The notes: a model not told the origin generated them from the sequence alone. Positions 3,266 through 18,686 are shown, counted from the stretch's first letter. The stretch is DNA of 64,000 nucleotides from a virus (IMGVR_UViG_3300020185_000011), one strand, 5' to 3'. Numbers and translations: made by a program.

Positions 3266-4534
3266 ATGAGAAAAGAATTGAAAAACGGAGAGACTATGAT
3301 AAATTCAATTGATATAAACGGTAAGAAATTCTCTTACACACCCGACAGGGCGGAGTTTTTGGGAGAACTCGTTTCTAAATTCCCTAACCAAACGTCCTTT
3401 GGAAGGAAGGAAATCAAAGATGCATTTGATGGATACTTCCCTTCATGGATAAAATCCTCGAAGTATAACTTCAAAGAAGCTCAAGAGACTGGGCCTTTGT
3501 TGTACAATCTTCAGGCTGTAATTACTGGATACAATGGTGGGTACTCTGAGTCAGCACCCCAACCTGCTCCAGCACCAGTCGTTGCAATTACTCCACCGAG
3601 TAATATGCCAGTGGCTGCACAAACAGAGTCAGTTAATCTACTCGATGATGAAGTTAAAATCATTCCCGAGAAGATGTCTAACTATGTTCCTTTTGGACAT
3701 TTCAGAGATGTCAAAAATATTATTAAATCCAAAATCTTCTTTCCAGTATTCGTTACTGGTCTGAGTGGTAATGGTAAAACTCTTATGATTGAACAAACTT
3801 GTGCTCAATTGAAGAGAGAACTTTACAGAGTCAACATCACCATCGAAACCGATGAAGATGATTTGATGGGTGGCCACACTCTTGTTAATGGTAACGTTGT
3901 CTTCAGAGAAGGCCCTGTTATCAAAGCAATGAGAAAAGGTGCTGTCCTTCTTCTTGACGAAGTTGACTTGGGTTCAAACAAGTTGATGTGTCTACAATCA
4001 GTTCTTGAAGGTAAAGGATACCTAATCAAGAAAACTGGTGAGTGGGTTTCACCTAAAGATGGTTTCACAATCCTTGCAACTGCAAACACGAAAGGTCAAG
4101 GGTCAGACGATGGTAAATTCATCGGGACTCAAATCATGAATGAAGCAATGTTGGAAAGATTTGCAATCACGATGCAACAAGAATACCCACCAGTGAAAAC
4201 TGAGAAGTCAATCCTTGCAAAAGAAATGGAATTGACTGGTGCCGTTGATGAAGACTTCGTTGAGAAGCTTGTCGACTGGGCTGACATAATCAGAAAGACA
4301 TACTACGAAGGTGGTATCGATGATGTTGTCACGACTAGAAGGTTGGTTCACATTGTCAATGCATTCAGAATGTTCAATGACAAGTTGAAGTCAATCACAA
4401 TGTGTATTTCAAGATTTGATGAAGAGACTAGGAGTTCAATCCTTGACCTCTACTCCAAGATTGATGCTGGAGTTGACTTGAATGCTGAAGCTGAAGAAAC
4501 TTCAGAAAACCCTGTTGACGAAACAGGGTACTAG
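3266..4534 (+). CDS. cobS: MoxR/CobS-like AAA+ ATPase
   Basis: Walker A GLSGNGKT, Walker B LLLDEVD, ATANTKG, NEAMLERF; alternative start at 3296. Confidence 0.9.
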   Translation: MRKELKNGETMINSIDINGKKFSYTPDRAEFLGELVSKFPNQTSFGRKEIKDAFDGYFPSWIKSSKYNFKEAQETGPLLYNLQAVITGYNGGYSESAPQPAPAPVVAITPPSNMPVAAQTESVNLLDDEVKIIPEKMSNYVPFGHFRDVKNIIKSKIFFPVFVTGLSGNGKTLMIEQTCAQLKRELYRVNITIETDEDDLMGGHTLVNGNVVFREGPVIKAMRKGAVLLLDEVDLGSNKLMCLQSVLEGKGYLIKKTGEWVSPKDGFTILATANTKGQGSDDGKFIGTQIMNEAMLERFAITMQQEYPPVKTEKSILAKEMELTGAVDEDFVEKLVDWADIIRKTYYEGGIDDVVTTRRLVHIVNAFRMFNDKLKSITMCISRFDEETRSSILDLYSKIDAGVDLNAEAEETSENPVDETGY

Positions 4535-4543
4535 GAGTATACT
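4515..4543 (+). promoter_or_regulatory. sigma70-type promoter
   Basis: TTGACG 4515-4520, 17 nt, TATACT 4538-4543, ATG at 4550. Confidence 0.7.
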
Positions 4544-4549
4544 AGTAAC

Positions 4550-4834
4550 ATGTCAGTAAAAATAAACTACAAATACAATGAGAAGGAACTCCTATCGGAG
4601 TTCTCTTCCTACATTGATAAGACATACGGTGAACACTATTCCAAAGATAGATTTCAGGCAACTGAGTTTATCATGGATGGTGGCCACGGTGAAGGATTTT
4701 GTATCGGTAACGTGATGAAATATGCACAACGATACGGCAAGAAGGATGGATATAATCGTGCCGACCTTCTCAAGGTTATCCATTACGGATTCCTTGCATT
4801 GTACAACCACGATACCTATAAGGAGACTAACTAG
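4550..4834 (+). CDS. DUF3310 / T7 gp1.7-like nucleotide kinase family protein
   Basis: HY...GFCIGNVMKYAQRYGKKDG..DLLKVIHY motif. Confidence 0.75.
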   Translation: MSVKINYKYNEKELLSEFSSYIDKTYGEHYSKDRFQATEFIMDGGHGEGFCIGNVMKYAQRYGKKDGYNRADLLKVIHYGFLALYNHDTYKETN

Positions 4835-5505
4835 TGATGAAAATTAGTAATGATACGAAGGATGTTCTAAAGAACTTCTCTACAATCAACTCGGGCATTC
4901 GAGTCAAAACAGGCAATAAACTGGAAACTATTTCCAATATGAAAAACATTCTTGCAGTTGCAACTGTGGCTGAGGACTTTCCTCAAGACTTCAGTATATA
5001 CAACTTGCCAGAGTTCTTAGGTGCAACGTCTTTAATGGACGACCCCGACTTCCAATTCAATGATTCATCATTGTCTGTGGCAGATAACAATTCCTCATTG
5101 TCATATTTCTATGCAGCTGAAGGAATGGTAACTGCACCCGAAAAAATGATAACCATGCCAGAGGCAGAGATTACTTTCAAAGTAACGTCAACTCTATTGA
5201 CCGACCTTAAGAAAGCTGCAGCTGTCCTAGGTGTTAATGATTTGATTCTCAAATCAGATGGTATCACAGTGACATTGATTGTCACAGATAAGAAGAGTCC
5301 TACTTCAAATACATTCTCAAGAATCGTAGAAGCTGAAGCAGATGGAACTTCTTATGAAATGAATTTCAAGATGGAAAATCTTAAGATTCTAGATGGTAAC
5401 TATGATGTTCAAGTATCATCAAAAGGTATATCTCATTTCAATAATGCAGATGTAGACTTAGAGTATTTTATTGCACTGGAGCCAGATAGCAAATACAATG
5501 TATAA
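4834..5505 (+). CDS. gp45: sliding clamp
   Basis: LKNFSTINSGI...FSIYNLPEFL...YFIALE; lies upstream of the clamp loader. Confidence 0.95.
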   Translation: MMKISNDTKDVLKNFSTINSGIRVKTGNKLETISNMKNILAVATVAEDFPQDFSIYNLPEFLGATSLMDDPDFQFNDSSLSVADNNSSLSYFYAAEGMVTAPEKMITMPEAEITFKVTSTLLTDLKKAAAVLGVNDLILKSDGITVTLIVTDKKSPTSNTFSRIVEAEADGTSYEMNFKMENLKILDGNYDVQVSSKGISHFNNADVDLEYFIALEPDSKYNV

Positions 5506-5616
5506 CCTATATAATAGTAGTGTGAATATTGTGCCAGTCTCTGCAATATACGCGGGAGTAGTCCTCACTCATCATTGGGTGGACTGCACTGCAAACTCGG
5601 TGGGGGGTTTGTTCTT

Positions 5617-6555
5617 ATGAATGAGTTTCTCTATGTAGAAAAGTATCGTCCACAAACAATTGAAGAGACGATACTGCCAAAGGAACTTAAAGATACCTTT
5701 AAGGAATTTGTCAAGAATGGAGAAGTACCTAATCTATTATTGTGTGGGTCAGCAGGTGTCGGTAAAACGACAGTTGCAAAAGCATTGTGTAACGAACTCG
5801 GTGCAGACTTTATAGTAATCAATGGTTCCGATGAAGGACGTTTGATTGACACACTCAGAACAAAGATTAAGAACTTTGCATCTTCGGTTTCATTATCGGG
5901 TGGTGCAAAGGTCGTAATCCTAGACGAAGCAGATTACATTTCTGCAGACTCAGTTCAACCAGCTTTGAGAAACTTTATAGAAGAGTTCTCGTCCAACTGT
6001 AGATTTATCTTTACATGTAATTACAAGAATAGGATTATTCCACCATTACATTCTAGAACTACAGTTATCGATTTTGGTATTACACCAAAACTAAAACCAC
6101 AACTTGCACAGCAGATGTTGGATAGATGTATACGAATATGTGTACAAGAAAACATTGAGGCCGATGAAAGAGTTCTTGCAGAACTCATCATGAAATTCTT
6201 CCCCGATTTTCGAAGAGTCCTCAATGAGATTCAACGATACGGTGCAAGTGGTGTTATTGATAGTGGGTTAATTTCAACTCTCTCCGAAGAGAAGTTAACC
6301 CCCTTGATTAATAACATCAAAGAAAAGAATTGGTCAGCCATGAGAAAATGGGTTGGTACTAATTCAGATAATGACTTTAATACATTATTCAGAAAAGTTT
6401 TCAATGCGTTAGAATTACAATTGGAGCCCCAATCAATTCCAGCGTGTGTGTTAATTATTGCAGACTATCAATACAAGTCTGCATTTGCAATGGATTCAGA
6501 GATAAACTTTGTTGCTTGTCTAACTGAAATCATGGGAGAATGTAAGTTCAAATGA
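5617..6555 (+). CDS. gp44: clamp loader large subunit
   Basis: VEKYRP, GSAGVGKTT, ILDEAD, LHSRT, FPDFRR; start taken at ATG 5617. Confidence 0.95.
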   Translation: MNEFLYVEKYRPQTIEETILPKELKDTFKEFVKNGEVPNLLLCGSAGVGKTTVAKALCNELGADFIVINGSDEGRLIDTLRTKIKNFASSVSLSGGAKVVILDEADYISADSVQPALRNFIEEFSSNCRFIFTCNYKNRIIPPLHSRTTVIDFGITPKLKPQLAQQMLDRCIRICVQENIEADERVLAELIMKFFPDFRRVLNEIQRYGASGVIDSGLISTLSEEKLTPLINNIKEKNWSAMRKWVGTNSDNDFNTLFRKVFNALELQLEPQSIPACVLIIADYQYKSAFAMDSEINFVACLTEIMGECKFK

Positions 6556-6812
6556 CAGAACATAACGAGAGAGTAGAACGACAAAGACTATTACTAGAAG
6601 CTGAAGAATGGGCTAGTGGTGTTAAATCCATCCATGCACATTCATTCACTTCAATGTGGTACGACACTAGACGTAATGATGGTTCAGTACTGGACGTTGA
6701 ATACAACAACGGTGTCGTACAAAGAACAATAAAGTCAAGCGGTGAGATTATTTACTTTGGTGAAGCTCTTACTGGTCAAGCACTACTCGACTCTTACATA
6801 AGAAACACTTAA
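6552..6812 (+). CDS. hypothetical protein
   Basis: 86-aa ORF coupled (ATGA) between gp44 and gp62. Confidence 0.65.
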   Translation: MTEHNERVERQRLLLEAEEWASGVKSIHAHSFTSMWYDTRRNDGSVLDVEYNNGVVQRTIKSSGEIIYFGEALTGQALLDSYIRNT

Positions 6813-6813
6813 A

Positions 6814-7206
6814 GTGTCGAAACGTAATCCATTCGATTTTGTTAAATCGGTCTCTTCCGATAAAACTGATATCATGGTTGATGATATCGAAGAGAAAGCA
6901 TATCAACCATTCCTCATAAACAAATCTTTGTCTTACCACCAAGATTCTGTTTTCTTTACTAACGAAATGAATTGTCGCCACGGTCTAGACAACCGTCTTC
7001 AGTATGTGTTTTTCCTAAATACTTTACGAAAACGACAAAGATTTTCTAAGTGGTCTAAACCATATGTTAGTAAAAAACTCGATGTCGTAAAAGAATATTA
7101 TCAGATGTCAACAAGAGAAGCAAAAGAATTGTATACTCTCTTATCTGATAAAGAATTACGTGAGTTGAAGAACAGAATGAATACTGGTGGTAATAACAAT
7201 GGATGA
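6814..7206 (+). CDS. gp62: clamp loader small subunit
   Basis: PFDFVKS...YQPFLINKSLS...NEMN...RKRQRFSKW; synteny. Confidence 0.92.
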   Translation: MSKRNPFDFVKSVSSDKTDIMVDDIEEKAYQPFLINKSLSYHQDSVFFTNEMNCRHGLDNRLQYVFFLNTLRKRQRFSKWSKPYVSKKLDVVKEYYQMSTREAKELYTLLSDKELRELKNRMNTGGNNNG

Positions 7207-7609
7207 TGCACAAGAAAAAATAGTTTCAGAATTAGTCGAAGTAACCTTCCCCGAGAAAGATGATTTCCTAAAGATAAGGGAAACACTATCACGCATAGGT
7301 GTTGCGTCTAGAAGAGAACAGGAACTATTCCAATCTTGTCATATCTTACACAAGCGTGGTCATTACTACATCACTCACTTCAAAGAGTTATTCAAACTCG
7401 ATGGTAAACCTACAAACATAGATGAGTCTGATATTGGTAGAAGAAATACTATCTGTAAGCTTCTAGAACAATGGAAACTCGTTACTTTGGTTGACCCTTC
7501 TAAGATAGTAGAACCATCTGCACCCCTTTCCCAAATCAAAATTATTCCATACAAAGAGAAATCTAACTGGAAATTGACCACAAAATACTCTATTGGTGGG
7601 TCTAAATAG
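7199..7609 (+). CDS. regA: translational repressor RegA
   Basis: DDFLKIRETLSRIGVAS, QSCHILHKRGHYYITHFKELF, WKLTTKYSIG. Confidence 0.95.
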   Translation: MDDAQEKIVSELVEVTFPEKDDFLKIRETLSRIGVASRREQELFQSCHILHKRGHYYITHFKELFKLDGKPTNIDESDIGRRNTICKLLEQWKLVTLVDPSKIVEPSAPLSQIKIIPYKEKSNWKLTTKYSIGGSK

Positions 7610-7645
7610 ATAAATACCTCTGTTAATAACTAACGGAGAAAACAT

Positions 7646-7840
7646 ATGTGGGATTTTATAAGTAGTATTTGGGCATTCATGTCAGCAATACCAGCGATTA
7701 TTTCTATATGTTCAGTCATTGTAATGATGACGGACACACCAAAAGACGATGCTATTTGGGCGAAGTGCTATAAATACATAGAAGTCTGTGCTCTAGCAAT
7801 AGGTAAAGCAAAAGACAAGAACCCATTACTTGATAAGTAA
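7646..7840 (+). CDS. small membrane protein
   Basis: 64 aa, hydrophobic N-half, TDTPKDD motif; GGAG RBS; TAAATA upstream. Confidence 0.65.
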   Translation: MWDFISSIWAFMSAIPAIISICSVIVMMTDTPKDDAIWAKCYKYIEVCALAIGKAKDKNPLLDK

Positions 7841-7859
7841 TTTAATTTAGGAGAACATT

Positions 7860-8108
7860 ATGGACGGAATAGTAATAGTAGCAATACTAGCTGTTGCATT
7901 CGTGTTTTTCGTTGTCAAAGGTAAGAAGAAAAAATCTTCAGTATCTAAGAAGACTACACCATCTAAGCCAAAGGCACCAACGGTTTCAGAGTTAAAAAAA
8001 TTAACTAAGAATCAATTGGTAGAACTTGCAGAAAAGAAAAACCTTAAGGTTAAAAAATCTGGCGCAAAGGCTGCAGTCATCAACGAAATTCGTGAACAAT
8101 TGAAATAA
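7860..8108 (+). CDS. N-terminal TM protein with basic Rho-N/SAP-like C-terminus
   Basis: TM helix, Lys-rich linker, ELKKLTKNQLVELAEK...KAAVINEI. Confidence 0.65.
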   Translation: MDGIVIVAILAVAFVFFVVKGKKKKSSVSKKTTPSKPKAPTVSELKKLTKNQLVELAEKKNLKVKKSGAKAAVINEIREQLK

Positions 8109-8127
8109 CTCTTTACGATGTCTTAAG

Positions 8128-8155
8128 AAGAGACTCGAAAGAGTCTCTTTTTTTT
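8128..8155 (+). terminator. Rho-independent terminator
   Basis: AAGAGACTC-GAAA-GAGTCTCTT followed by a T run. Confidence 0.9.
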
Positions 8156-8178
8156 GGCGTATAAGAAACCTAAAAGAA

Positions 8179-8184
8179 TAAATA
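8179..8184 (+). promoter_or_regulatory. T4-type late promoter heading the curli/cyclase operon
   Basis: ATAAATA, 5 nt, then ATG 8190; directly after the terminator. Confidence 0.65.
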
Positions 8185-8189
8185 ATTGC

Positions 8190-8486
8190 ATGAATGATAT
8201 ATTTGTTTTGATAGGTGAAGTGGGAGCCCCGATTGCAGGGAGCCTTGTGATGGGATTTTTTATCTTCATAGTCATCAAACAAATTTTAGAAGGCGTAGTT
8301 GACGACATTAAGACGTTAACAATGTTTTGCAACTCACTGGAGAACCGTGCAAGAACCATGTCAAATGAAATGATTAAGATTGACATGTTAGTTTCCGCTG
8401 CATTGGAACTCCGTCCCGATATAGAACGTGTAGCACGTGCAGAAAATTTTATTGAAGATGGAAAACTAGATGTGAGACGTGACTAA
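8190..8486 (+). CDS. small membrane protein upstream of csgF
   Basis: GAPIAGSLVMGFFIFIVIK TM followed by coiled coil. Confidence 0.75.
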   Translation: MNDIFVLIGEVGAPIAGSLVMGFFIFIVIKQILEGVVDDIKTLTMFCNSLENRARTMSNEMIKIDMLVSAALELRPDIERVARAENFIEDGKLDVRRD

Positions 8487-8593
8487 TGATAAATGAAATA
8501 GTAATGGTTGAATACAAATTCACTAGGGACTTTGTTCTTATGTGTTCATTAGGTCTCAACGTAGGATTTCTGTTAGGGTTATTGTTCATCTAA
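8486..8593 (+). CDS. 35-aa hydrophobic peptide (not in ORF track)
   Basis: MINEIVMVEYKFTRDFVLMCSLGLNVGFLLGLLFI; TAATG overlaps at both ends. Confidence 0.6.
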   Translation: MINEIVMVEYKFTRDFVLMCSLGLNVGFLLGLLFI

Positions 8594-8862
8594 TGGAAAG
8601 TATTGTAGCAGTAATAAGTGATTACGGATTTCCAATCGTTATGGCAGTTGGGCTAGGTTACTTCATCTATTACATTTGGTGGTTTGTAGGCGAGAAGCTA
8701 GAACCCGAGATTGAAAAACAACACTTTGCGTTAATCAAAGTCATCGACCAAGTAAGAATGTTAGACCAAGATTTGATTCGTCTCCAACAAAAGGTAGACG
8801 TAGTTCTCGAATATAAAGAGAACGCTAAGAAAGAGGCAGCTAAAAATGAGAATAGTAAGTAG
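8593..8862 (+). CDS. small membrane protein, paralog-like of 8190..8486
   Basis: YGFPIVMAVGLGYFIYYIW TM plus IDQVRMLDQDLIRL coiled coil. Confidence 0.75.
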   Translation: MESIVAVISDYGFPIVMAVGLGYFIYYIWWFVGEKLEPEIEKQHFALIKVIDQVRMLDQDLIRLQQKVDVVLEYKENAKKEAAKNENSK

Positions 8863-9304
8863 TATAATTTTAATGATGATGTGTATGTCTGCAAATGCAG
8901 ATGAAATTGTATTTGGATTTAAGAGTCCTAGTTTTAATGGGATAGGACAATCAGCTCATTATCTTACCATTGAAAATCAAGAAAAGTCAAGACGTGACAA
9001 GATAAGACAAGACATTGAAGATGCAATTGCAAAGGCAGATAGAGAAGCACAGAATACAACTCTTGCAAAATTTTTAAGAAATGTTGAGAGCAGAATTTAC
9101 GCTCAACTTGCAAAACAATTAGTAGAGAATATGTTCTCTAACGGTGAGGCTGCAATGTATGGAGTCTTCACTATCGAAGGTAATACGGTTACATATGAAC
9201 AGTTGGTTGGAGAAGATGGTGTGTCATTTATCAGATTGACTATTGTGTCAAGTGATGGAACGACAACAACATTGGATATACCAATAGGCACTGGGAGCTT
9301 TTAA
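8846..9304 (+). CDS. csgF: curli assembly protein CsgF-like
   Basis: Signal peptide then IVFGFKSPSFNG, ENQE; C-terminal TTTTLDIP; directly upstream of csgG. Confidence 0.85.
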   Translation: MRIVSSIILMMMCMSANADEIVFGFKSPSFNGIGQSAHYLTIENQEKSRRDKIRQDIEDAIAKADREAQNTTLAKFLRNVESRIYAQLAKQLVENMFSNGEAAMYGVFTIEGNTVTYEQLVGEDGVSFIRLTIVSSDGTTTTLDIPIGTGSF

Positions 9305-10213
9305 GTGAAGAATTTATGGATGGTGGGACTACTGGTCTTGCTCATCAGCGGGTGTGCTGCTATACCAAGCATGACGGATTCCTGTACATCATTGGTTATG
9401 GAACGAGTAGGTGAATGTGTCGAAATGGCAGAAGTAGTAAATATACCTACGTATCAAGAACTTGCAGACTTACCACCTGCTGACAATATGCCAGTAGTTG
9501 CAGTGTATGGGTTCTTAGATAAGACAGGACAAAGGAAGAGAATGGATAACATCGCATCATTCTCTACTGCAGTCACACAAGGTGCAGAATCATTTTTAAT
9601 TGATGCACTTAAGACTGCTGGAAAAGGTAAATGGTTTAGAGTAGTGGAACGTACAAGTTTAGACGCACTTGTAAGAGAGAGACAAATCATTCGTTCTACT
9701 AGAGAAGACTTTGCAAGACAGGAAGGTAATGAGGATGCTCCAACAGGCATTCAACCTCTCTTGTTTGCTGGTATCCTACTTGACGGTGGGATAATTGGTT
9801 ATGATACAAACATTGAAAGTGGTGGACGAGGCGCAAGATACTTAGGTATTGGTTCAAGTGTTTCCTATCGTAGAGATGTTGTCACAGTATCGTTGAGGGG
9901 AATATCAACTTTAACTGGTGAAATTTTACTCAATGTACAGACTACAAAGACGATTTTAAGTACAGGTGGTGGTTATGATGTATTCCGCTTCGTGGATATG
10001 GATACGAAGTTAGTGGAAATGGAAGACGGTATAGCAGCGAATGAAGGAGTTACGAAAGCAACTCGTTCTGCAATTGAGCTTGCTGTCTTAGAACTAATAT
10101 ACCAAGGACACGATAGAGGTTTTTGGGTAATTAAAGATGGACATCGTCATCCTCATGGAACACATGGGAGAAACGAATTACATCAAATAGAGGATAAACA
10201 AAATGAAGAATAA
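9305..10213 (+). CDS. csgG: curli secretion channel lipoprotein CsgG
   Basis: Lipobox LISGC; VAVYGFLDKTGQRK, FSTAVTQGA, WFRVVER..L..LVRERQIIR, GGIIGYDTN. Confidence 0.93.
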   Translation: MKNLWMVGLLVLLISGCAAIPSMTDSCTSLVMERVGECVEMAEVVNIPTYQELADLPPADNMPVVAVYGFLDKTGQRKRMDNIASFSTAVTQGAESFLIDALKTAGKGKWFRVVERTSLDALVRERQIIRSTREDFARQEGNEDAPTGIQPLLFAGILLDGGIIGYDTNIESGGRGARYLGIGSSVSYRRDVVTVSLRGISTLTGEILLNVQTTKTILSTGGGYDVFRFVDMDTKLVEMEDGIAANEGVTKATRSAIELAVLELIYQGHDRGFWVIKDGHRHPHGTHGRNELHQIEDKQNEE

Positions 10214-10934
10214 ATTATTCATTACATTATGTTTAACATTAGGGTTTTCTACTACAGCATTTGCTGGAGCAGACGACAATGAAATATGGTTGAATCAAAG
10301 CGGTACTGGTTTAGTATTAGATTTTACACAGAAAGGTTATGGAAACAAAGTTGGTCTAGATGATTTCTCGGGAACATCTGCTGATATGGTTTTAACTGGT
10401 GCATCTAATACGTTTACACTTGTCCAATTTGGAGACAATAACAAACTATACGGGCCTATGATTGCTGACTCAGCAACTATAAACCTTACCTTCACTGGTG
10501 ATTCAAATGTCATGGACTGGAACGTAGGATATGTTGGTAGTGCAGATAACTTAAATATGTTAGGAACTGTTACAGGTGATTCAAACACATTCGATATTGA
10601 TGTCGGATATGATGCATCTGCAGAATATCTTAACTGGGATTTAGCACTTACTGGTGACTCAAACGTATTCACTACTAAGATAGATAGTGACAATGCTGTT
10701 TGGAATTGGACTGTTACAGGTTCATCGAATGACATTAACACCAATCAATCAGATGCAACCGATAATAAAATCACAGCAATCTTAACTGGTTCAAGTAATG
10801 ATATAGACATCATTCAGAAATCGGGTTCAGATGCTGGTTGTCCAACTGGTCAATCATGTAGTGGTATTATCGATGTAACTTTCGTGACTTCTAATGCAGA
10901 TATTGACATCGTTCAGCAAGACTCTAACGATTAA
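10203..10934 (+). CDS. secreted curlin-like beta-solenoid repeat protein
   Basis: Signal peptide; repeated (Q/T)-x-G-x-x-N units (TQKGYGN, VQFGDNN, TGDSN x3, TGSSN x2); follows csgG. Confidence 0.75.
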   Translation: MKNKLFITLCLTLGFSTTAFAGADDNEIWLNQSGTGLVLDFTQKGYGNKVGLDDFSGTSADMVLTGASNTFTLVQFGDNNKLYGPMIADSATINLTFTGDSNVMDWNVGYVGSADNLNMLGTVTGDSNTFDIDVGYDASAEYLNWDLALTGDSNVFTTKIDSDNAVWNWTVTGSSNDINTNQSDATDNKITAILTGSSNDIDIIQKSGSDAGCPTGQSCSGIIDVTFVTSNADIDIVQQDSND

Positions 10935-12021
10935 TCTTTTACTTATTGGTTCACTTCAAGGTGAACCAATAGGTGAGATTACAGAACAAACAGGATACGC
11001 TGGGTTGCAGAGGGACGGTGAGAACACCGTCATCTCAGCGTCATATCTACCCGAAGTGCTAATGTATGATACAGCACAAACACAAAATGGGAGAATGAAA
11101 ATTCAGTTCCTTGGAGACGAGGAATTGGATTTAACAGAACACTCCAAGGTTTGGATAGACGAGGTTTACTATGACCCCGACCCATCCAAGTCCAAGATGG
11201 CCATAAGAATGGCACAAGGCACCGCTCGATTTGCTTCGGGTTTTGGTGGTAAAATAAACAAAGCGAACATAAATATAACTACACCTACTGCACAGATAAC
11301 AGTTAGAGGCACAGATTTCACAACTAGTATTGATGAAATCGGAAGGTCATTGATAATTCTGCTCCCCGATAAATGGGGTGGGCCCTCGGGAGAAATTGTA
11401 GTAAGTAATGCTGGTGGTTCGGTGACTATGAATGAAGCATATCAGACAACGATGGTTTCGACTTATGATGATTCACCTACAAAACCAGTTGTAGTAAATG
11501 GGATTACACCCAGTCTAATTGACAACTACTTCATTGTGTCCCCACCCGAAGAGGTGCAAGACCAAGTTGCAGAAGAAAGTAGTTCAGAGAATGATAGTAG
11601 TAACATTCTTGATGTAGACTTCCTAGAGTTTAACGACTTAGAGGAAGATTACTTCGAAGATGATGAACTAGAATATACAGAACTCGATAGAGACTTATTA
11701 GATATCGATTTCTTGCAAGATTTACTAGACGTTGTCTTAGAGATTGACCGTAAGGTTGGTATCGATAGAGAACGTGCAGCTTTTGGGTCGGTTCGAATAG
11801 AAGGAACGACCTCGGGGTTTGACAAAGACACTCAATACAATACAATTGTAGATAAGGGTCTTGGTCAAATATGGTTCTACAGGGAAGTGAATGGAATTAT
11901 TTCAATCAAGATTCCCATGTTTGCACAAGCAAGTATTAGAACCGTAACAGACGAAAAAGAGTCATCAATAAGGGTGGGTGATGGTTCGTCTTTAAATATT
12001 ACCATCACGCAAACAAACTAG
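10894..12021 (+). CDS. FecR-domain periplasmic protein
   Basis: LTEHSKVWIDEVYYDP, GTARFASG, ITTPTAQITVRGTDF; acidic C-terminal half. Confidence 0.85.
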   Translation: MQILTSFSKTLTINLLLIGSLQGEPIGEITEQTGYAGLQRDGENTVISASYLPEVLMYDTAQTQNGRMKIQFLGDEELDLTEHSKVWIDEVYYDPDPSKSKMAIRMAQGTARFASGFGGKINKANINITTPTAQITVRGTDFTTSIDEIGRSLIILLPDKWGGPSGEIVVSNAGGSVTMNEAYQTTMVSTYDDSPTKPVVVNGITPSLIDNYFIVSPPEEVQDQVAEESSSENDSSNILDVDFLEFNDLEEDYFEDDELEYTELDRDLLDIDFLQDLLDVVLEIDRKVGIDRERAAFGSVRIEGTTSGFDKDTQYNTIVDKGLGQIWFYREVNGIISIKIPMFAQASIRTVTDEKESSIRVGDGSSLNITITQTN

Positions 12022-12029
12022 GAGAATCT

Positions 12030-12176
12030 ATGAACCTATTAGAAAAATTCCGAGACTGGCATGAAACTCAATTATTTGGATTTCAGAAGGCTCTGCAATT
12101 GGATGACTACCACATGTTGTGGATAGCATTTGCAGAGGGAGTTATCTTATGTTTATTATTTCAATGGTTATTCTAA
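12030..12176 (+). CDS. 48-aa membrane peptide (not in ORF track)
   Basis: MNLLEKFRDWHE...DDYHMLWIAFAEGVILCLLFQWLF; AGGAG RBS. Confidence 0.65.
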   Translation: MNLLEKFRDWHETQLFGFQKALQLDDYHMLWIAFAEGVILCLLFQWLF

Positions 12177-12195
12177 TAAGAGAATTTGAAGAATT

Positions 12196-12834
12196 ATGAA
12201 AAAATTTTTATTATTAACTTTATTGATAAGCTTGCCGACATGGGCAGACGAAAATCATGTCCATGTTGAGCAGGTTGCAAGTGGAGATGTAGACCTTAAC
12301 ATAACACAAAAAGGTTATGATAATGAAATTAAGTTTACATTTGCACATAGTGGAAACACATTCAATCTATTGCAAACAGGAAATGGAAACTCTATTTCTT
12401 GGGTCTCTTACTGGGGGCCAGGAAAGTCTTGGGGTGGTGATGTAGACGGGACTAACAATACTGAAAACGTAGAACAAAGTGGTGGTGCAACATATGGTAG
12501 ACACATATGGGGAAACAGTAACACAGTAGATGTATACCAAAGTGGAACACATACACATAACATAGACGTTCACTCAAATTCAGTAGACCACGAAATACAT
12601 CAGTCGGGTAGTGGTTCACACTATGCACACACTTATTTCTATGGAAGTGCAACAGGTTCAGATAGTAGTATTATGCAGAAAGGCTCAGGAAGTCACAATG
12701 CACAAATTACATTACAAGGAAGTTATCCAACAACACTAAATCTTTTACAAGAAGGTTCAACAAACAAATCATATACACTAACACAAAATTGTCAAACAAC
12801 TACTGGTTGTTCAGTATCGGTGACACAGGAATGA
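12196..12834 (+). CDS. second curlin-like repeat protein (His-rich)
   Basis: Signal peptide; QxG repeats (TQKGYDN, LQTGNGN, YQSG, HQSGSGSH, MQKGSGSH, LQEG); C-terminal CQTTTGCSVSVTQ. Confidence 0.75.
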   Translation: MKKFLLLTLLISLPTWADENHVHVEQVASGDVDLNITQKGYDNEIKFTFAHSGNTFNLLQTGNGNSISWVSYWGPGKSWGGDVDGTNNTENVEQSGGATYGRHIWGNSNTVDVYQSGTHTHNIDVHSNSVDHEIHQSGSGSHYAHTYFYGSATGSDSSIMQKGSGSHNAQITLQGSYPTTLNLLQEGSTNKSYTLTQNCQTTTGCSVSVTQE

Positions 12835-13100
12835 ACTCAGAATGCCCACCCGAGTTTTACGAGTGTTATACTGAAGAACAGTTTAATGAGATATTAGACC
12901 TCTTTGAAGAGAATGAAATTGTAATGCCTGAAACACTTGAACCTTTGGGTGACGTTGAGGCAGCTATAAACTTTGGTTGGGAAGTTCTTTTTTTATCACC
13001 ATGGGAACTTGCGTACATAGCATTGCCTATGTCTGTACTTGCATTCTATGGACTATCTATCTATACAGTCTTTAAATGGGTACAGAAGAAATTCTCATAA
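12831..13100 (+). CDS. small membrane protein
   Basis: Acidic N-terminus, C-terminal TM; ATGA-coupled to the curlin gene. Confidence 0.6.
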   Translation: MNSECPPEFYECYTEEQFNEILDLFEENEIVMPETLEPLGDVEAAINFGWEVLFLSPWELAYIALPMSVLAFYGLSIYTVFKWVQKKFS

Positions 13101-13101
13101 A

Positions 13102-14943
13102 ATGTTTTCATGGAAATCAGTATTAATAACAATCGTAGCAATCTTTGCTCTAAAGATATGGAATCCTTATTTTGTTGAAAACATCTCATGGTCGTGGTTT
13201 GATTACCTTCACCAACAACAACCTGTAGTTTATGTTGACGATATTATACTTGTTGATATTGATGAGAAGAGTCTTGAGACTTTTGGACAGTATCCTATTC
13301 GCCGTGGTATTTACCGTGACATTCTTCTTAACACTCATTACTCTAACACTCACTTGTTCTCTACTCTTTTTTCGGAAAGTGATAGAGACCCTTCACAAGA
13401 CAATCTATTTGCTGAGGGGTTAGTCAATAGACTTACAATCCTTGGAGCTGCTCCAACATCACAAACTCAAAAAGGTTCTGCACCATTCGTAGGTAACTCT
13501 ACCTTTGGGGGTGGAAATGCAAAAGATTGGTTGTGGAATTTTACTGGAATTGTGTCGCCCATCGCGATGCTGATGGGGAATACTTATGGAGTCGGAGTTG
13601 TGACGGCTACTCCAGCTGTCACTGGAACACCTAATTTCGATGGAACTACGCGGTCTGTACCCCTTATGGTTACGGCAAATGGACAAGTATATCCATCTCT
13701 AGTTTTAGAGACATTACGTGCCTTACGTGACCAGCCTTCTTATCAAACTAAGATTACACCCGAAGCTGGAGTTGAATGGGTTAGAATGGGGAGAGACAAA
13801 CCTATTACAACAACTCCAACTTCAGACGTAATGGTTTCCTATTGGAATAAATTCCATAGAATATCTGCAGTTGACCTATCCGAATCTAATTTTGAGAATA
13901 AGATTCTTGTATGGGGTCTGACAGCTGAGGGTTTGAATAATCCAGTTTCAACCCCAAGGGGAGTAATGTATCCCCACGAAGTGCAAGCAAACCTGCTCCA
14001 AACCGTTTTGACAGGAGTTCAAATACAACAATCCTACTATCTTGAATCCTTAGAATCCGTTCTTCTTCTGTTAGTCCTAATAACGATATTGGGTTTGGTC
14101 TACAAAGCTCCCACACTTCTCTCGGGGGTAGGGAGTCTATTGCTTGTAGGATGCCAGATTGGCGGGAGTTATTATATTTGGACTTCAGAGCTCGTTCTTT
14201 TCGATACCTTTTTCTCATCGATTGCCTCCTTAGTGGTATTTGGTCATGCTTCTTTCAACAAATACTACATCACATATCAAGAAAAACAACAAATTAAGAA
14301 GCAGTTCCAAAAGTATTTATCACCCGACATGATTGAAGAGCTCCAAAAAGACCCATCAAAATTGAAGCTTGGTGGAGATAGAAAGGAACTTACCTTCATG
14401 TTTATGGACATCTGTGGGTTCACACCCATAAGCGAACACTACATGAAACAGGACGACCCCGAAGGATTGGTAGAACTAATTAACAAGTTCTTAGATATGC
14501 AGACTAAGATAATCCTAAATAATAATGGAACTATCGACAAGTATATGGGCGACTGTATTATGAGTTTTTGGAATGCACCTTTAGATTGTCCCGACCACGC
14601 CGAGATGGCAGTCAAGTCTGCAGAAGAAATACTAATAGCAACCAAGGAACTCAATGAAGAACTCAAACCACTCGGTCTTCCACCCATTAACGTGGGTATT
14701 GGGATTAATACTGGTGAGTGCATCGTTGGAAATATGGGGTCAGAACTTAGATTTGACTATTCCGTCATTGGAGATGCAGTCAACCTCGGTGCTAGACTTG
14801 AGGGACAAACAAGAAATTATGATGGGGTGGACGTGTTGTTGGGACAAGAAACTTATCTCCAATGTCCAAACAGAACATTCACAAAAGTTGATTCAATTAC
14901 AGTTAAAGGAAAATCAGAACCAGTCGTGGTTTACACTATCTGA
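13102..14943 (+). CDS. CHASE2-domain membrane adenylate cyclase (class III)
   Basis: N-terminal TM, ILVDIDEKSL..G.YP..R CHASE2 start, 3 TMs, FMDICGFT, DKYMGD, GIGINTG, DYSVIGDAVNLGARLE (K/D ATP-specifying residues). Confidence 0.92.
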   Translation: MFSWKSVLITIVAIFALKIWNPYFVENISWSWFDYLHQQQPVVYVDDIILVDIDEKSLETFGQYPIRRGIYRDILLNTHYSNTHLFSTLFSESDRDPSQDNLFAEGLVNRLTILGAAPTSQTQKGSAPFVGNSTFGGGNAKDWLWNFTGIVSPIAMLMGNTYGVGVVTATPAVTGTPNFDGTTRSVPLMVTANGQVYPSLVLETLRALRDQPSYQTKITPEAGVEWVRMGRDKPITTTPTSDVMVSYWNKFHRISAVDLSESNFENKILVWGLTAEGLNNPVSTPRGVMYPHEVQANLLQTVLTGVQIQQSYYLESLESVLLLLVLITILGLVYKAPTLLSGVGSLLLVGCQIGGSYYIWTSELVLFDTFFSSIASLVVFGHASFNKYYITYQEKQQIKKQFQKYLSPDMIEELQKDPSKLKLGGDRKELTFMFMDICGFTPISEHYMKQDDPEGLVELINKFLDMQTKIILNNNGTIDKYMGDCIMSFWNAPLDCPDHAEMAVKSAEEILIATKELNEELKPLGLPPINVGIGINTGECIVGNMGSELRFDYSVIGDAVNLGARLEGQTRNYDGVDVLLGQETYLQCPNRTFTKVDSITVKGKSEPVVVYTI

Positions 14944-15247
14944 ACAACCTAGTAATCTTCAGTGGGCTGCATTCATATCACTTCAATTTGCAGATATCTA
15001 TACCACATATCGTGGTCTCAAATACAGTTGTGTCAAAGAACTAAATCCTTTTCTTGGTGAATCACCTTCAGTTCCACAAATGTTTGCATTTAAGATTGCA
15101 GTTCTCATTCCTGCTATAAACTCAGATATTAAAAATGAGAGGGTAACACCATACGTTATGAATCAGATGAACTTCTTAATGTCTATGGTGATTGCAAGTA
15201 ATCTTGATATATTGAAAGATGCAAAAGAAAGATGCAGAAAATTCTAA
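14654..15247 (+). CDS. membrane protein (DUF5658-like); start uncertain, overlaps cyclase 3' end
   Basis: LQFADIYTTYRGL....ELNPFLG motif; the in-frame ATGs that precede this domain lie inside the cyclase gene (14654, 14774, 14819). Confidence 0.55.
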   Translation: MKNSNHSVFHPLTWVLGLILVSASLEIWGQNLDLTIPSLEMQSTSVLDLRDKQEIMMGWTCCWDKKLISNVQTEHSQKLIQLQLKENQNQSWFTLSEQPSNLQWAAFISLQFADIYTTYRGLKYSCVKELNPFLGESPSVPQMFAFKIAVLIPAINSDIKNERVTPYVMNQMNFLMSMVIASNLDILKDAKERCRKF

Positions 15248-16434: not shown

Positions 16435-17712
16435 ATGATGAGTGATAATAAATATTTTCAATACAACCTAGAAGACCTTCACCGAAACAGTGAAAGTAAA
16501 CAGTTTAACTACATTACTTTCTTTGCTGGTGGTGGGGGTTCTTCATGTGGTTACAAACTAGCTGGTGGTGATGTAAAATACATGAATGAATTTCAACAGA
16601 TTCATGTCGACACCTACCTAGAAAATTTCCCTAATACAGTTCATGAATGTAGAGACATCAAAGAAGTCACTGCAGAAGGAATCATGGAGCTGACTGGACT
16701 TAAAAAATACGAATTAGATATCATGGATGGGTCACCACCTTGTCCACCATTTTCTATGGCAGGTTCCAAGAAAGAAGGATGGAACCAAGAGAAGATGGCA
16801 TATGGTATGAAACAACAGAACATCGAAGACCTTACATGGGAAATGATTAGGATTGCCGAAGGGTTGATGCCTAAAGTTATAGTATGTGAGAACGTGAAGG
16901 GTCTCTCGATGGACTATGCAAGAGACCATCTAAACAAGATGGTAAATGATTTTGAAGCACTAGGATACTCAGTGACTTGGAAAATCATGAAGGGACATGA
17001 ACATGGTGTTCCACAAAAAAGAGAAAGAGTATTCATGGTTGGTGTACGTGATGATGTACTTGAAGGTATTGGAATGCCTTGGATGTGTATGTCTTCAGTC
17101 TTCCCCGACCCAGTTAAAGAATTTGCATCCATTGAAGATGCAATTCAAGATTTAGAAACCGATGAAGAGAACATCAAGGATGCAGCTTATCTAGAAACTG
17201 CAATGAACGAATCTTCAAAGGGACATTGGGTAAATGGTTTCGAACAACATCCCGATGAGAAGTTCAAGGATTGTGGCCCATGTGGTGGAGTTACTCCTGT
17301 ACTACATGAGAGAGACAATCAAGCATATGTTTCTATTGGAGACCATATTGTTAAACCTTGGTTTCAAGAACAGATTAAGAACGGACACGTACAACCCGAA
17401 GATGAAAAACATTCTTACTACATGTCAAGAATTGTTCCTAAACATCTACCAGCTCACTCATTGACTGAACAGGGTTGTCAACCAAAATTTATGGGTGGTA
17501 ATCATTTCCACCATGGTGGTAAGAGAATCTACACACCAAAAGAAATGGTGAGATTAATGACTCTACCAAATGATTATAAAATGACTGGTGATTACAACGA
17601 CAAGGGTGCAAGAATTGGATTGATGGTAGCACCACTATGTATGTACTACTTAGTTGAAAACATCAAAGGACAAATATTAGAACCATGGAATTCACTGCAA
17701 CAAAAGACTTAG
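16435..17712 (+). CDS. C5 DNA cytosine methyltransferase
   Basis: Motif I FFAGGGG, IV GSPPCPPFS, VI ENV, VIII PQKRERVF. Confidence 0.93.
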   Translation: MMSDNKYFQYNLEDLHRNSESKQFNYITFFAGGGGSSCGYKLAGGDVKYMNEFQQIHVDTYLENFPNTVHECRDIKEVTAEGIMELTGLKKYELDIMDGSPPCPPFSMAGSKKEGWNQEKMAYGMKQQNIEDLTWEMIRIAEGLMPKVIVCENVKGLSMDYARDHLNKMVNDFEALGYSVTWKIMKGHEHGVPQKRERVFMVGVRDDVLEGIGMPWMCMSSVFPDPVKEFASIEDAIQDLETDEENIKDAAYLETAMNESSKGHWVNGFEQHPDEKFKDCGPCGGVTPVLHERDNQAYVSIGDHIVKPWFQEQIKNGHVQPEDEKHSYYMSRIVPKHLPAHSLTEQGCQPKFMGGNHFHHGGKRIYTPKEMVRLMTLPNDYKMTGDYNDKGARIGLMVAPLCMYYLVENIKGQILEPWNSLQQKT

Positions 17713-18686
17713 GATTTAAAGAAACATTTAAGAAATGGAACGGTAAGTATCTTACTGAAGATTCTTATGACACTGTTATCTCATCCATTGGTGTAGAAGA
17801 TGATACTATTAAAATATACAAACCTCATGGTACACTCATGGGGGAAACTTTACTTGCATGTATAGTAAAGAAAGCATACAAAGGTAAAACTTATAGAACA
17901 GTTAAAGACACTTTGTTCTCTATAGATGATACATCTACAATGAGAGCAAATGCAGCCGGGCCTATCGACCACGAAGAAATGAAAGCAAAAGGATTAATCG
18001 AAGGTAAAGACTATGTCCTAAGAACTCCAAACAGTTATTATCCATTAAAGAAGAACGGTGAGTTCAATCGTATTGCAGAAGCAAATGAGATTCATTCAGT
18101 TCTAATCGGGTATAAACGTGGCAGATTCACAGGAATGATTAAGGCAAGTGGTTGGATGGATAAGAAAGCAAACAAAGAAAAGTTTGAAACCCTTCAACAG
18201 ATTGCACAAGTAAATGAACAAGCATTAAAGACTGCAGTTCCCGAGATATGGAAGATGCAAAGAACATTTGCAGATGAATGTATAGAAGAGAAATACCATA
18301 TTGGTGGAGCTCCTATGACAGCGTTATCTGCAAACAAATATTCAACTGGTGGGACTGCAAAGATGTCTGCACATTTGGATGGTAAAGATTTAGAGTTCGG
18401 AATGACAACTATGTGTGTCTTCCGTATTGGAGAATTTGGGGGTGCATACTTATGTTTCCCTAGATATGGTATTGCTATTGAAGCAGATGATGGAGACGTA
18501 CTGATTGCAGATTCAAATGAATTGCACGGTGTATCACCTATCACTGGTGAAGGAGTAAGGTTATCATGTGTTGCATATTGTGATGAACATGTTGCAACTA
18601 AAGGGAGAGCTGGAAAGACTGAGAATCCTATCGGCCCTCATGCTGGAAAGTATGAGGAGAAAGGTTCACTTGACAGCTTTTTCTAG
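17685..18686 (+). CDS. TET/JBP-family 5-methylpyrimidine dioxygenase
   Basis: HLD (HxD), GGAYLCFPRYGIAI, ELHGVSPI, RLSCVAY; overlaps the C5-MTase by 28 nt. Confidence 0.85.
   Translation: MEFTATKDLGFKETFKKWNGKYLTEDSYDTVISSIGVEDDTIKIYKPHGTLMGETLLACIVKKAYKGKTYRTVKDTLFSIDDTSTMRANAAGPIDHEEMKAKGLIEGKDYVLRTPNSYYPLKKNGEFNRIAEANEIHSVLIGYKRGRFTGMIKASGWMDKKANKEKFETLQQIAQVNEQALKTAVPEIWKMQRTFADECIEEKYHIGGAPMTALSANKYSTGGTAKMSAHLDGKDLEFGMTTMCVFRIGEFGGAYLCFPRYGIAIEADDGDVLIADSNELHGVSPITGEGVRLSCVAYCDEHVATKGRAGKTENPIGPHAGKYEEKGSLDSFF

Follow-up and report, generated by a model that had tools for sequence, protein, structure and literature searches.

The window analysed here, 64,000 nucleotides (nt) from the virus IMGVR_UViG_3300020185_000011, carries between positions 8179 and 15247 a compact block of genes for a curli-type outer-membrane pore, two curlin-like secreted proteins, a FecR-domain protein and a CHASE2 receptor adenylate cyclase. 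The block belongs to the type VIII (curli) secretion system (T8SS) modules that viruses carry, known from pelagiphages and the OM43 phage Melnitz. A preliminary description of this DNA had suggested that curlins, FecR and cyclase may form a complete module; the combination was already published in 2022 as ‘HK-CsgF-CsgG-CsgA/B-FecR-CsgA/B-AC’ in podo- and myoviral pelagiphages, together with its global distribution and transcript evidence (PMC9599517). To that account, in which FecR is a regulator for iron and CHASE2 goes unmentioned, sequence comparison adds homology to the rhizobial NsrA/CyaK pair and to bacterial RTX-adhesin loci, a FecR protein built in three parts, a conserved overlapping open reading frame (ORF) and a gene fusion that looks viral. 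We consider the chances slightly better than even that the block exports a curlin-like protein and that FecR reports the state of the outer envelope to CHASE2, raising cyclic AMP (cAMP) late in infection. Signalling through cAMP by the phage FecR/cyclase pair is in itself plausible. The genes on which this reading turns are the following.

8846..9304, + strand: CsgF-like curli assembly protein with a signal peptide (Pfam CsgF, E 2.9e-14; phrog_35372, E 3.3e-38)
9305..10213, + strand: CsgG outer-membrane lipoprotein pore (Pfam CsgG, E 2.7e-48)
10203..10934, + strand: curlin-like secreted β-solenoid 1 (homologues match Pfam Curlin_rpt; AlphaFold2 (AF2) model with CsgA as top structural match)
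10894..12021, + strand: secreted FecR-domain protein, 375 amino acids (aa) (Pfam FecR, E 1.4e-9)
12196..12834, + strand: curlin-like secreted protein 2 (homology to curlin-like 1; curlin profile)
13102..14943, + strand: CHASE2 receptor class III adenylate cyclase, 613 aa (CHASE2, E 7.4e-27; Guanylate_cyc, E 5.8e-16)

The secretion half of the block is readily recognised. The CsgF match spans positions 2–132 of the 132-position profile, with no direct sequence match in the PDB. CsgG aligns with the E. coli CsgG structures at 3e-45 and possesses both a lipobox (LISGC) and the conserved pore-loop sequence SFSTAV, whilst the pore-loop residues Y51 and N55 are not conserved. The preliminary description had seen no CsgE, and a search of the 145.9-kb viral record to which the window belongs, some 80% complete, likewise returned no match to PF10627 at E ≤ 0.1.

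The two curlin-like proteins are matched by Pfam less directly. For curlin-like 1, 26 of 29 homologues match Pfam Curlin_rpt (best 1.6e-5), although the copy in the window does not. Its AF2 model is an all-β solenoid (pLDDT 81), and exhaustive comparison with 48,161 chains ranked CsgA (8c50) best, with a Z-score of 17.4 at 19% identity. Generic β-helices rank close behind, however, and a Foldseek search of the PDB with the same model gave no match at E ≤ 0.001; since CsgA emerges only from the exhaustive search and has such close competitors, the fold match is weak when taken alone. Curlin-like 2 falls below the Pfam cut-off in the window copy (E 0.068), but is clearly related to curlin-like 1 (hhalign 99.6%, 7.5e-24), and Q-x-G-x-x-N/H repeats are visible in its alignment. 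A hidden Markov model (HMM) built on curlin-like 2 recovers the curlins encoded beside csgFG in a range of bacteria, Methylobacterium, Sphingomonas and Hymenobacter among them.

The FecR-domain protein can be divided into three parts: a FecR fold (residues 27–200), an acidic linker (residues 215–298) and a C-terminal β domain. In the model, residues 27–200 superpose on the CCSSD of PupR (6ovk) with a Z-score of 15.2 over 135 residues. A second structural match is to 5ix9, which shows the N-terminal retention module of MpIBP, an RTX adhesin from Marinomonas, and on which the LapA module was modelled (10.1101/198937; PMC5550230): residues 23–123 align over 73 of 76 residues with a Z-score of 9.1, an rmsd of 2.4 and 23% identity. 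In those adhesins the retention module stays in the periplasm and keeps the protein threaded in a TolC-like pore (10.1101/198937; PMC5550230). The linker, with 30 aspartate or glutamate residues among its 84, is conserved and predicted to be disordered (pLDDT <50). At the N-terminus there is a short signal-like segment, the fold beginning at about residue 27, and we found no cytoplasmic anti-sigma domain, no transmembrane helix (no hydrophobic 19-mer above threshold) and neither RTX repeats nor any other further Pfam domain. Lacking the anti-sigma domain and the helix, the protein is not a Fec-type anti-sigma factor.

The 76-residue C-terminal β domain is confidently modelled and is phage-specific. 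Its profile, run against 1.84 billion proteins, returned 159 clusters, nearly all of which belong to this one viral family or are pieces of its members; a few large proteins were matched over several stretches, and these are generic β-repeat proteins (such as DUF346 and CarboxypepD_reg). An Atlas feature search with this domain found nothing. The domain ends in I-x-I-x-Q-x-N, much as curlin strands do, and was considered as a further curlin repeat, an idea that hhalign values of 1.3% against curlin-like 1 and 19% against curlin-like 2 do not support.

The cyclase consists of a transmembrane segment, CHASE2, three further transmembrane segments and the cyclase domain. The start had been placed at TTG 13039, and in this long ORF the Pfam CHASE2 match covers residues 31–352 and the hydrophobic segments lie at residues 1–25 and 316–382; alignment of homologues moves the start to ATG 13102. 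The cyclase domain matches solved adenylate cyclase structures at about 1e-33. Catalytic and ATP-specifying residues had been described as intact, and this is borne out by an alignment of 40 phage and bacterial homologues in which the metal ligands D436 and D484, the substrate-binding K480 and the transition-state residues N561 and R565 are all invariant. The lysine aligns with a glutamate of the guanylate cyclase Cya2, and the second specificity position is serine, giving the Lys/Ser pair of Sinorhizobium meliloti CyaK. No second cyclase was found in the record.

Gene order is strongly conserved among phages, as the preliminary description would lead one to expect. In a survey of IMG/VR loci found via the cyclase and extending at least 5.4 kb upstream of it (n = 48), 46 have the order sm1-sm2-CsgF-CsgG-curlin-like 1-FecR-curlin-like 2-cyclase, where sm1 and sm2 are small membrane proteins, at cyclase identities from 94% down to 41%. 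Annotations of the cultured phages HTVC008M (Pelagibacter) and Melnitz (Methylophilales) show this order too; csgF and csgG had earlier been reported in pelagimyophages (PMC7029224).

In bacteria, the two halves of the block are found apart. The 80 closest bacterial homologues of the cyclase, mostly from Alphaproteobacteria, are 30–35% identical to it over their full length. Using an HMM derived from the phage protein, we found a FecR-domain ORF within 9 kb of the cyclase in 23 of the 52 loci with at least 5 kb on each side, often directly upstream; these 52 loci contain no CsgG, CsgF or curlin. In Bradyrhizobium and Methylobacterium, a giant FecR ORF lies 4–98 nt upstream of the CHASE2 cyclase on the same strand, its FecR domain at the N-terminus and its cadherin/Big_9 and RTX repeats after that (loci L014–L016, L021, L022, L042 and L056; about 3500–8900, +). 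Recurrent neighbours of the bacterial cyclases include LapG-like BTLCP proteases (12 loci), TolC-like OEP proteins (8) and GAF-HD proteins (15). On the evidence of these neighbourhoods, the FecR-headed RTX giants may represent a bacterial link from adhesin to cAMP.

The closest CsgG homologues tell the complementary story. Genuine bacterial csgG loci comprise csgF-csgG and curlins without FecR or cyclase, and among about 65 csgG loci lacking the phage-type small proteins there is a FecR ORF in one only, a short contig from a metagenome-assembled genome (MAG; L179) which itself carries the phage-type block. Within this CsgG-homologue sample, the full block is otherwise confined to contigs that also carry the phage-type small proteins. 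A number of contigs assigned to Saprospirales, Rhodobacterales, Planctomycetaceae and Pelagibacter MAGs contain the complete block, sm1 and sm2 included (L166–L177, L183, L192, L221); these are probably phage DNA binned into MAGs. As the two units are joined in phage-type DNA only, at least in this sample, the fusion looks viral, and its confinement to phage is also stated in PMC9599517.

A genetically studied counterpart of the signalling half is on S. meliloti pSymB, where the gene for a 1190-aa ‘FecR domain-containing protein’ precedes cyaK with overlapping stop and start. This protein, with FecR at residues 66–160 and tetratricopeptide repeats (TPRs) at residues 417–587, is NsrA, judged by its position, length and description in PMC7529298. 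Residues 600–1200 of NsrA are described as an outer-membrane β-barrel, and perception of the signal needs both NsrA and CyaK (PMC7529298). Removal of CHASE2 makes CyaD1, a paralogue of CyaK, constitutive (PMC5498481). Aligned along its whole length with CyaK, the phage cyclase shows 32% identity (6e-76), and the phage FecR domain is 32% identical to that of the pSymB protein over 74 residues (9e-7). The premise of the preliminary description, that an outer-envelope FecR-domain protein works with a CHASE2 cyclase, is thus well founded in the pSymB pair and in the published work on it. In Campylobacterota, too, FecR-domain proteins are found in gene clusters with CHASE2 adenylate cyclases (PMC9239204), and in Burkholderiales and P. 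aeruginosa their clusters contain CHASE2 histidine kinases (PMC5192318); occurring as they do with both cyclases and kinases, FecR–CHASE2 pairs represent a sensor arrangement that is general among bacteria, whatever the output domain.

How might the block work? Two bacterial units are joined in a single late operon. The first (csgF, csgG and two paralogous curlin-repeat subunits) would form an outer-membrane pore and export curlin-like proteins. The second consists of the secreted FecR-domain protein and the inner-membrane CHASE2 adenylate cyclase, relatives of NsrA and CyaK. Most likely, the periplasmic FecR domain would signal the state of the outer envelope (conceivably the occupancy of the pore, the export of curlin or a ligand at the surface) to the periplasmic CHASE2. 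CHASE2 would keep the cyclase off, and relief of this inhibition would lead to more cAMP in the infected cell at a late stage.

Several points weigh against this proposal. The contact between FecR and CHASE2, like the cue and the effect of cAMP, is something that we infer. Prediction of a complex between CHASE2 (residues 21–318) and FecR (residues 24–215), with alignments, returned no answer (score 0.01; mark, 0.32) and weighs neither way. No cNMP-binding protein or domain was found in the 80%-complete record. The phage FecR protein, at 375 aa against 1190, has neither the TPRs nor the β-barrel of NsrA. One divergent IMG/VR relative (L126) has curlin 2 and the cyclase (5187–7951, +) with no csgF, csgG or FecR within 5.8 kb. 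Finally, viral curli genes are always accompanied by FecR and only frequently by the cyclase (PMC9599517); with FecR the constant partner, it may serve secretion first.

The published alternative starts from the fibre. In this explanation the phage makes curli-like fibres for aggregation (‘sibling capture’) or to block superinfection, and FecR and the cyclase only tune secretion, for example through cAMP-dependent expression. Put forward in PMC7029224 and PMC9599517, it draws support from the complete and conserved set of CsgF, CsgG and both curlin-like subunits, from the recovery of genuine bacterial curlins beside csgFG with the phage curlin HMM and from the constant presence of FecR in viral T8SS blocks, those that have no cyclase included. 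Cultures of Melnitz showed no clumping, however (PMC9004378), no CsgD-type regulator or cNMP-binding protein is encoded, and transcription looks to be driven by a phage late promoter rather than by cAMP. The explanation is compatible with a sensor, and as an account of the whole block we regard it as possible but doubtful. Fold and context also allow an unlikely elaboration of the sensor, in which the FecR protein would be a tether across the outer membrane on the LapA principle, using the curli pore. Here the FecR or retention-like domain would remain periplasmic, in contact with CHASE2, the 84-residue acidic linker would thread the CsgG/CsgF channel in place of the missing CsgE gate, and the C-terminal β domain would lie outside, possibly gripping curlin fibres; a pull, loss of the tether or binding of a basic ligand would then raise cAMP directly.

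Could the FecR–cyclase pair and the curli genes simply be two cargo modules that were acquired together and act separately? Bacteria have csgFG loci without FecR or cyclase and FecR–cyclase loci without csgFG, and in L126 the cyclase and a curlin occur with csgFG and FecR not nearby. We find this quite unlikely, however, given that curlin, FecR, curlin and cyclase genes are interleaved and overlapping, in an order kept in 46 of the 48 loci across 41–94% cyclase identity and reportedly across podo- and myoviruses (PMC9599517). Even less probable is a role in lysis, proposed for Melnitz (PMC9004378), in which CsgG and CsgF form a gated outer-membrane pore or pinholin-like lysis timer and the small membrane proteins and the cyclase its timing circuit. 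The late-type promoter, the six small membrane proteins in the block and the absence of the CsgE gate would suit this, but CsgG, being in the outer membrane, has no means of depolarising the inner one, the presence of CsgF and of two conserved curlin substrates favours secretion, and Pfam reveals no endolysin- or spanin-like gene in the block. Import of iron or a cofactor, with FecR in the role it has in ferric citrate signalling and siderophores or cofactors entering through the CsgG pore, is also on record (PMC9599517), and the FecR fold does match PupR. The signal-like N-terminus, together with the lack of an anti-sigma domain or transmembrane helix, speaks against it, as does the failure to match a TonB C-terminal domain (TonB_C) anywhere in the virus's own record; moreover, in bacteria this FecR clade is partnered by CHASE2 proteins and not by TonB-dependent transducers. 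Import therefore seems to us scarcely credible.

The reading that we prefer, of curlin export coupled to an envelope sensor, matters in several respects. Phages that are very abundant in the ocean carry the block, and hosts such as SAR11 and OM43 have no such outer-membrane secretion system of their own (PMC9599517, PMC9004378), so that the infected cell gains one. The tie to NsrA/CyaK turns a vague ‘regulator’ label into the testable idea of a phage envelope sensor that writes to cAMP. If the tether were real, it would be a surface or contact sensor built by a phage. The bacterial loci that combine FecR-RTX proteins, CHASE2, LapG-like and TolC-like proteins suggest that CHASE2 may generally read the state of surface-tethered proteins, which, if true, would bear on the question of the CHASE2 ligand.

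The remaining features of the block are its control signals, several small membrane proteins and a gene that overlaps the cyclase.

8125..8156, + strand: intrinsic terminator of the upstream unit (12-bp stem, GAAA loop, U-run)
8179..8184, + strand: T4-type late promoter core, AATAAATA context (TAAATA, read directly from the sequence)
8190..8486, + strand: sm1, 98 aa, one transmembrane segment followed by a helical tail (phrog_18771, E 1.4e-23)
8486..8593, + strand: 35-aa membrane peptide (ORF; C-terminal hydrophobic segment, residues 17–35)
8593..8862, + strand: sm2, 89 aa, paralogue of sm1 (phrog_18771, E 9e-25)
12030..12176, + strand: 48-aa membrane peptide (C-terminal hydrophobic segment, residues 30–48)
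12831..13100, + strand: 89-aa acidic protein with a C-terminal transmembrane segment, tail-anchored (ORF; hydrophobic segment, residues 63–81)
14654..15247, + strand: 197-aa overlapping gene in the +1 frame (signal-like N-terminus, DUF5658 membrane domain)

The genes named in the preliminary description were all recovered in place, from ORFs and Pfam matches, and the hydrophobic segments and signal-like N-termini fit what it had said of them. It had also placed a terminator at 8128–8155 and a late promoter (TAAATA) at 8179, and both are present. The hairpin, found at about 8125–8156, has a folding free energy of -20.8 kcal/mol (z -5.2 against shuffled sequences, none of 200 shuffles folding equally well) and comes after the RegA region and two small ORFs. 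The TAAATA box would, by analogy with the T4-like late consensus, act as a late promoter. The first ATG of the block, at 8190, is only 5 nt past the box, leaving no room for a Shine–Dalgarno leader if transcription starts as in T4. Between 8190 and 14943 the intergenic distances range from -41 to +19 nt, the curlin-like 1 and FecR genes overlapping by 41 nt; this interleaved and overlapping layout fits co-translation.

The hydrophobic 19-mer of sm1 is at residues 11–29, and the gene is present in 46 of the 48 viral loci. A search of the virus's own genome shows sm2 to be weakly similar to sm1; each has one transmembrane segment, and neither matches a histidine-kinase or any other Pfam domain, even at E 5. 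The gene for the 35-aa peptide between them has 1-nt start and stop overlaps with both of its neighbours. The 48-aa peptide is kept in most loci with a cyclase at least 66% identical to that of the window and is undetected below 66%, and the 89-aa acidic protein occurs in a subset of relatives. In L126, the sm1/sm2 pair follows a gene for a 197-aa protein with a TonB_C domain instead of csgF (8210–9450, -), an arrangement which hints that sm1 and sm2 may belong to a TonB-like energising unit.

The interval 8179–15247 holds the genes that had been listed for it but also an ORF that had escaped description. This ORF (14654–15247) overlaps the 3′ end of the cyclase gene by 290 nt and has AAGGA 5 nt before its ATG; the DUF5658 match, in its C-terminal part, scores 25.9 bits against a cut-off of 25.2. 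In 46 non-identical relatives with the ORF, the last 291 nt of the cyclase gene are almost free of +1-frame stops (0.11, compared with 10.6 for the +2 frame); further upstream the +1 frame has 9.2 stops per 291 nt. The same stretch has 6.2 +1-frame stops in 22 relatives without the ORF. Furthermore, synonymous codon diversity in the cyclase gene falls in the overlap only in those relatives that have the ORF. These patterns indicate that it is probably a real overprinted gene.

The window is part of a 145,922-bp IMG/VR record, and the virus is a marine T4-like myophage of an uncultured lineage. Upstream of the block lie genes for the sliding clamp (gp45), the clamp loader (gp44/62) and RegA; downstream are Hsp20, peroxiredoxin, a C5-methyltransferase, a TET/JBP oxygenase and DNA polymerase (gp43). 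The C5-cytosine methyltransferase gene, just 3′ of the block, overlaps the TET/JBP-type oxygenase gene (16435–18686), which suggests a DNA cytosine modification system. The DNA polymerase is 47% identical to that of the nearest GenBank phages, which are cyanophages, and megablast of the region against GenBank phages gave no match. Although nothing closely related to it is in culture, the lineage is very common: the identical FecR protein is encoded by 105 contigs, and over 4,000 homologues of this protein were found at E ≤ 0.001. Its closest relatives in a set of 5.8 billion proteins, at 80% identity or more, are all viral, with no bacterial context.

Compared with the pelagiphage T8SS module, the block has the same genes in the same order, and CsgE is absent from both. 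The lineage is different, the cyclase being 40% identical to that of HTVC008M, and the block lies between regA and hsp20/gp43 rather than beside tail genes. Additional small ORFs and the DUF5658 gene that overlaps the cyclase also set it apart, and the two upstream proteins at the ‘HK’ position of PMC9599517 show no kinase domain here. The likeness to the E. coli CsgABCDEFG system lies in CsgG, CsgF and the secreted repeat subunits rich in Q, N and G; the phage lacks CsgE, CsgC and CsgD, and its subunits are longer and carry a C-terminal pair of cysteines.

As in NsrA/CyaK, the FecR gene shares an operon with a CHASE2 cyclase that has the same Lys/Ser specificity pair; in the phage the two genes are about 1 kb apart. 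Within the phage block, CsgG alone is an outer-membrane barrel, and the cue in rhizobia is a basic host protein. Compared with LapA and MpIBP, the phage has no RTX repeats, type I secretion signal or LapG-type protease, and export would proceed via Sec and CsgG rather than a TolC-like pore. As in LapA (10.1101/198937), however, a flexible linker follows the domain that resembles a retention module. Together with the FecR-headed RTX giants and the LapG-like and TolC-like genes near bacterial CHASE2 cyclases, the comparison suggests a common theme, in which a periplasmic FecR-like knob of a surface-tethered protein would sit near a CHASE2 sensor.

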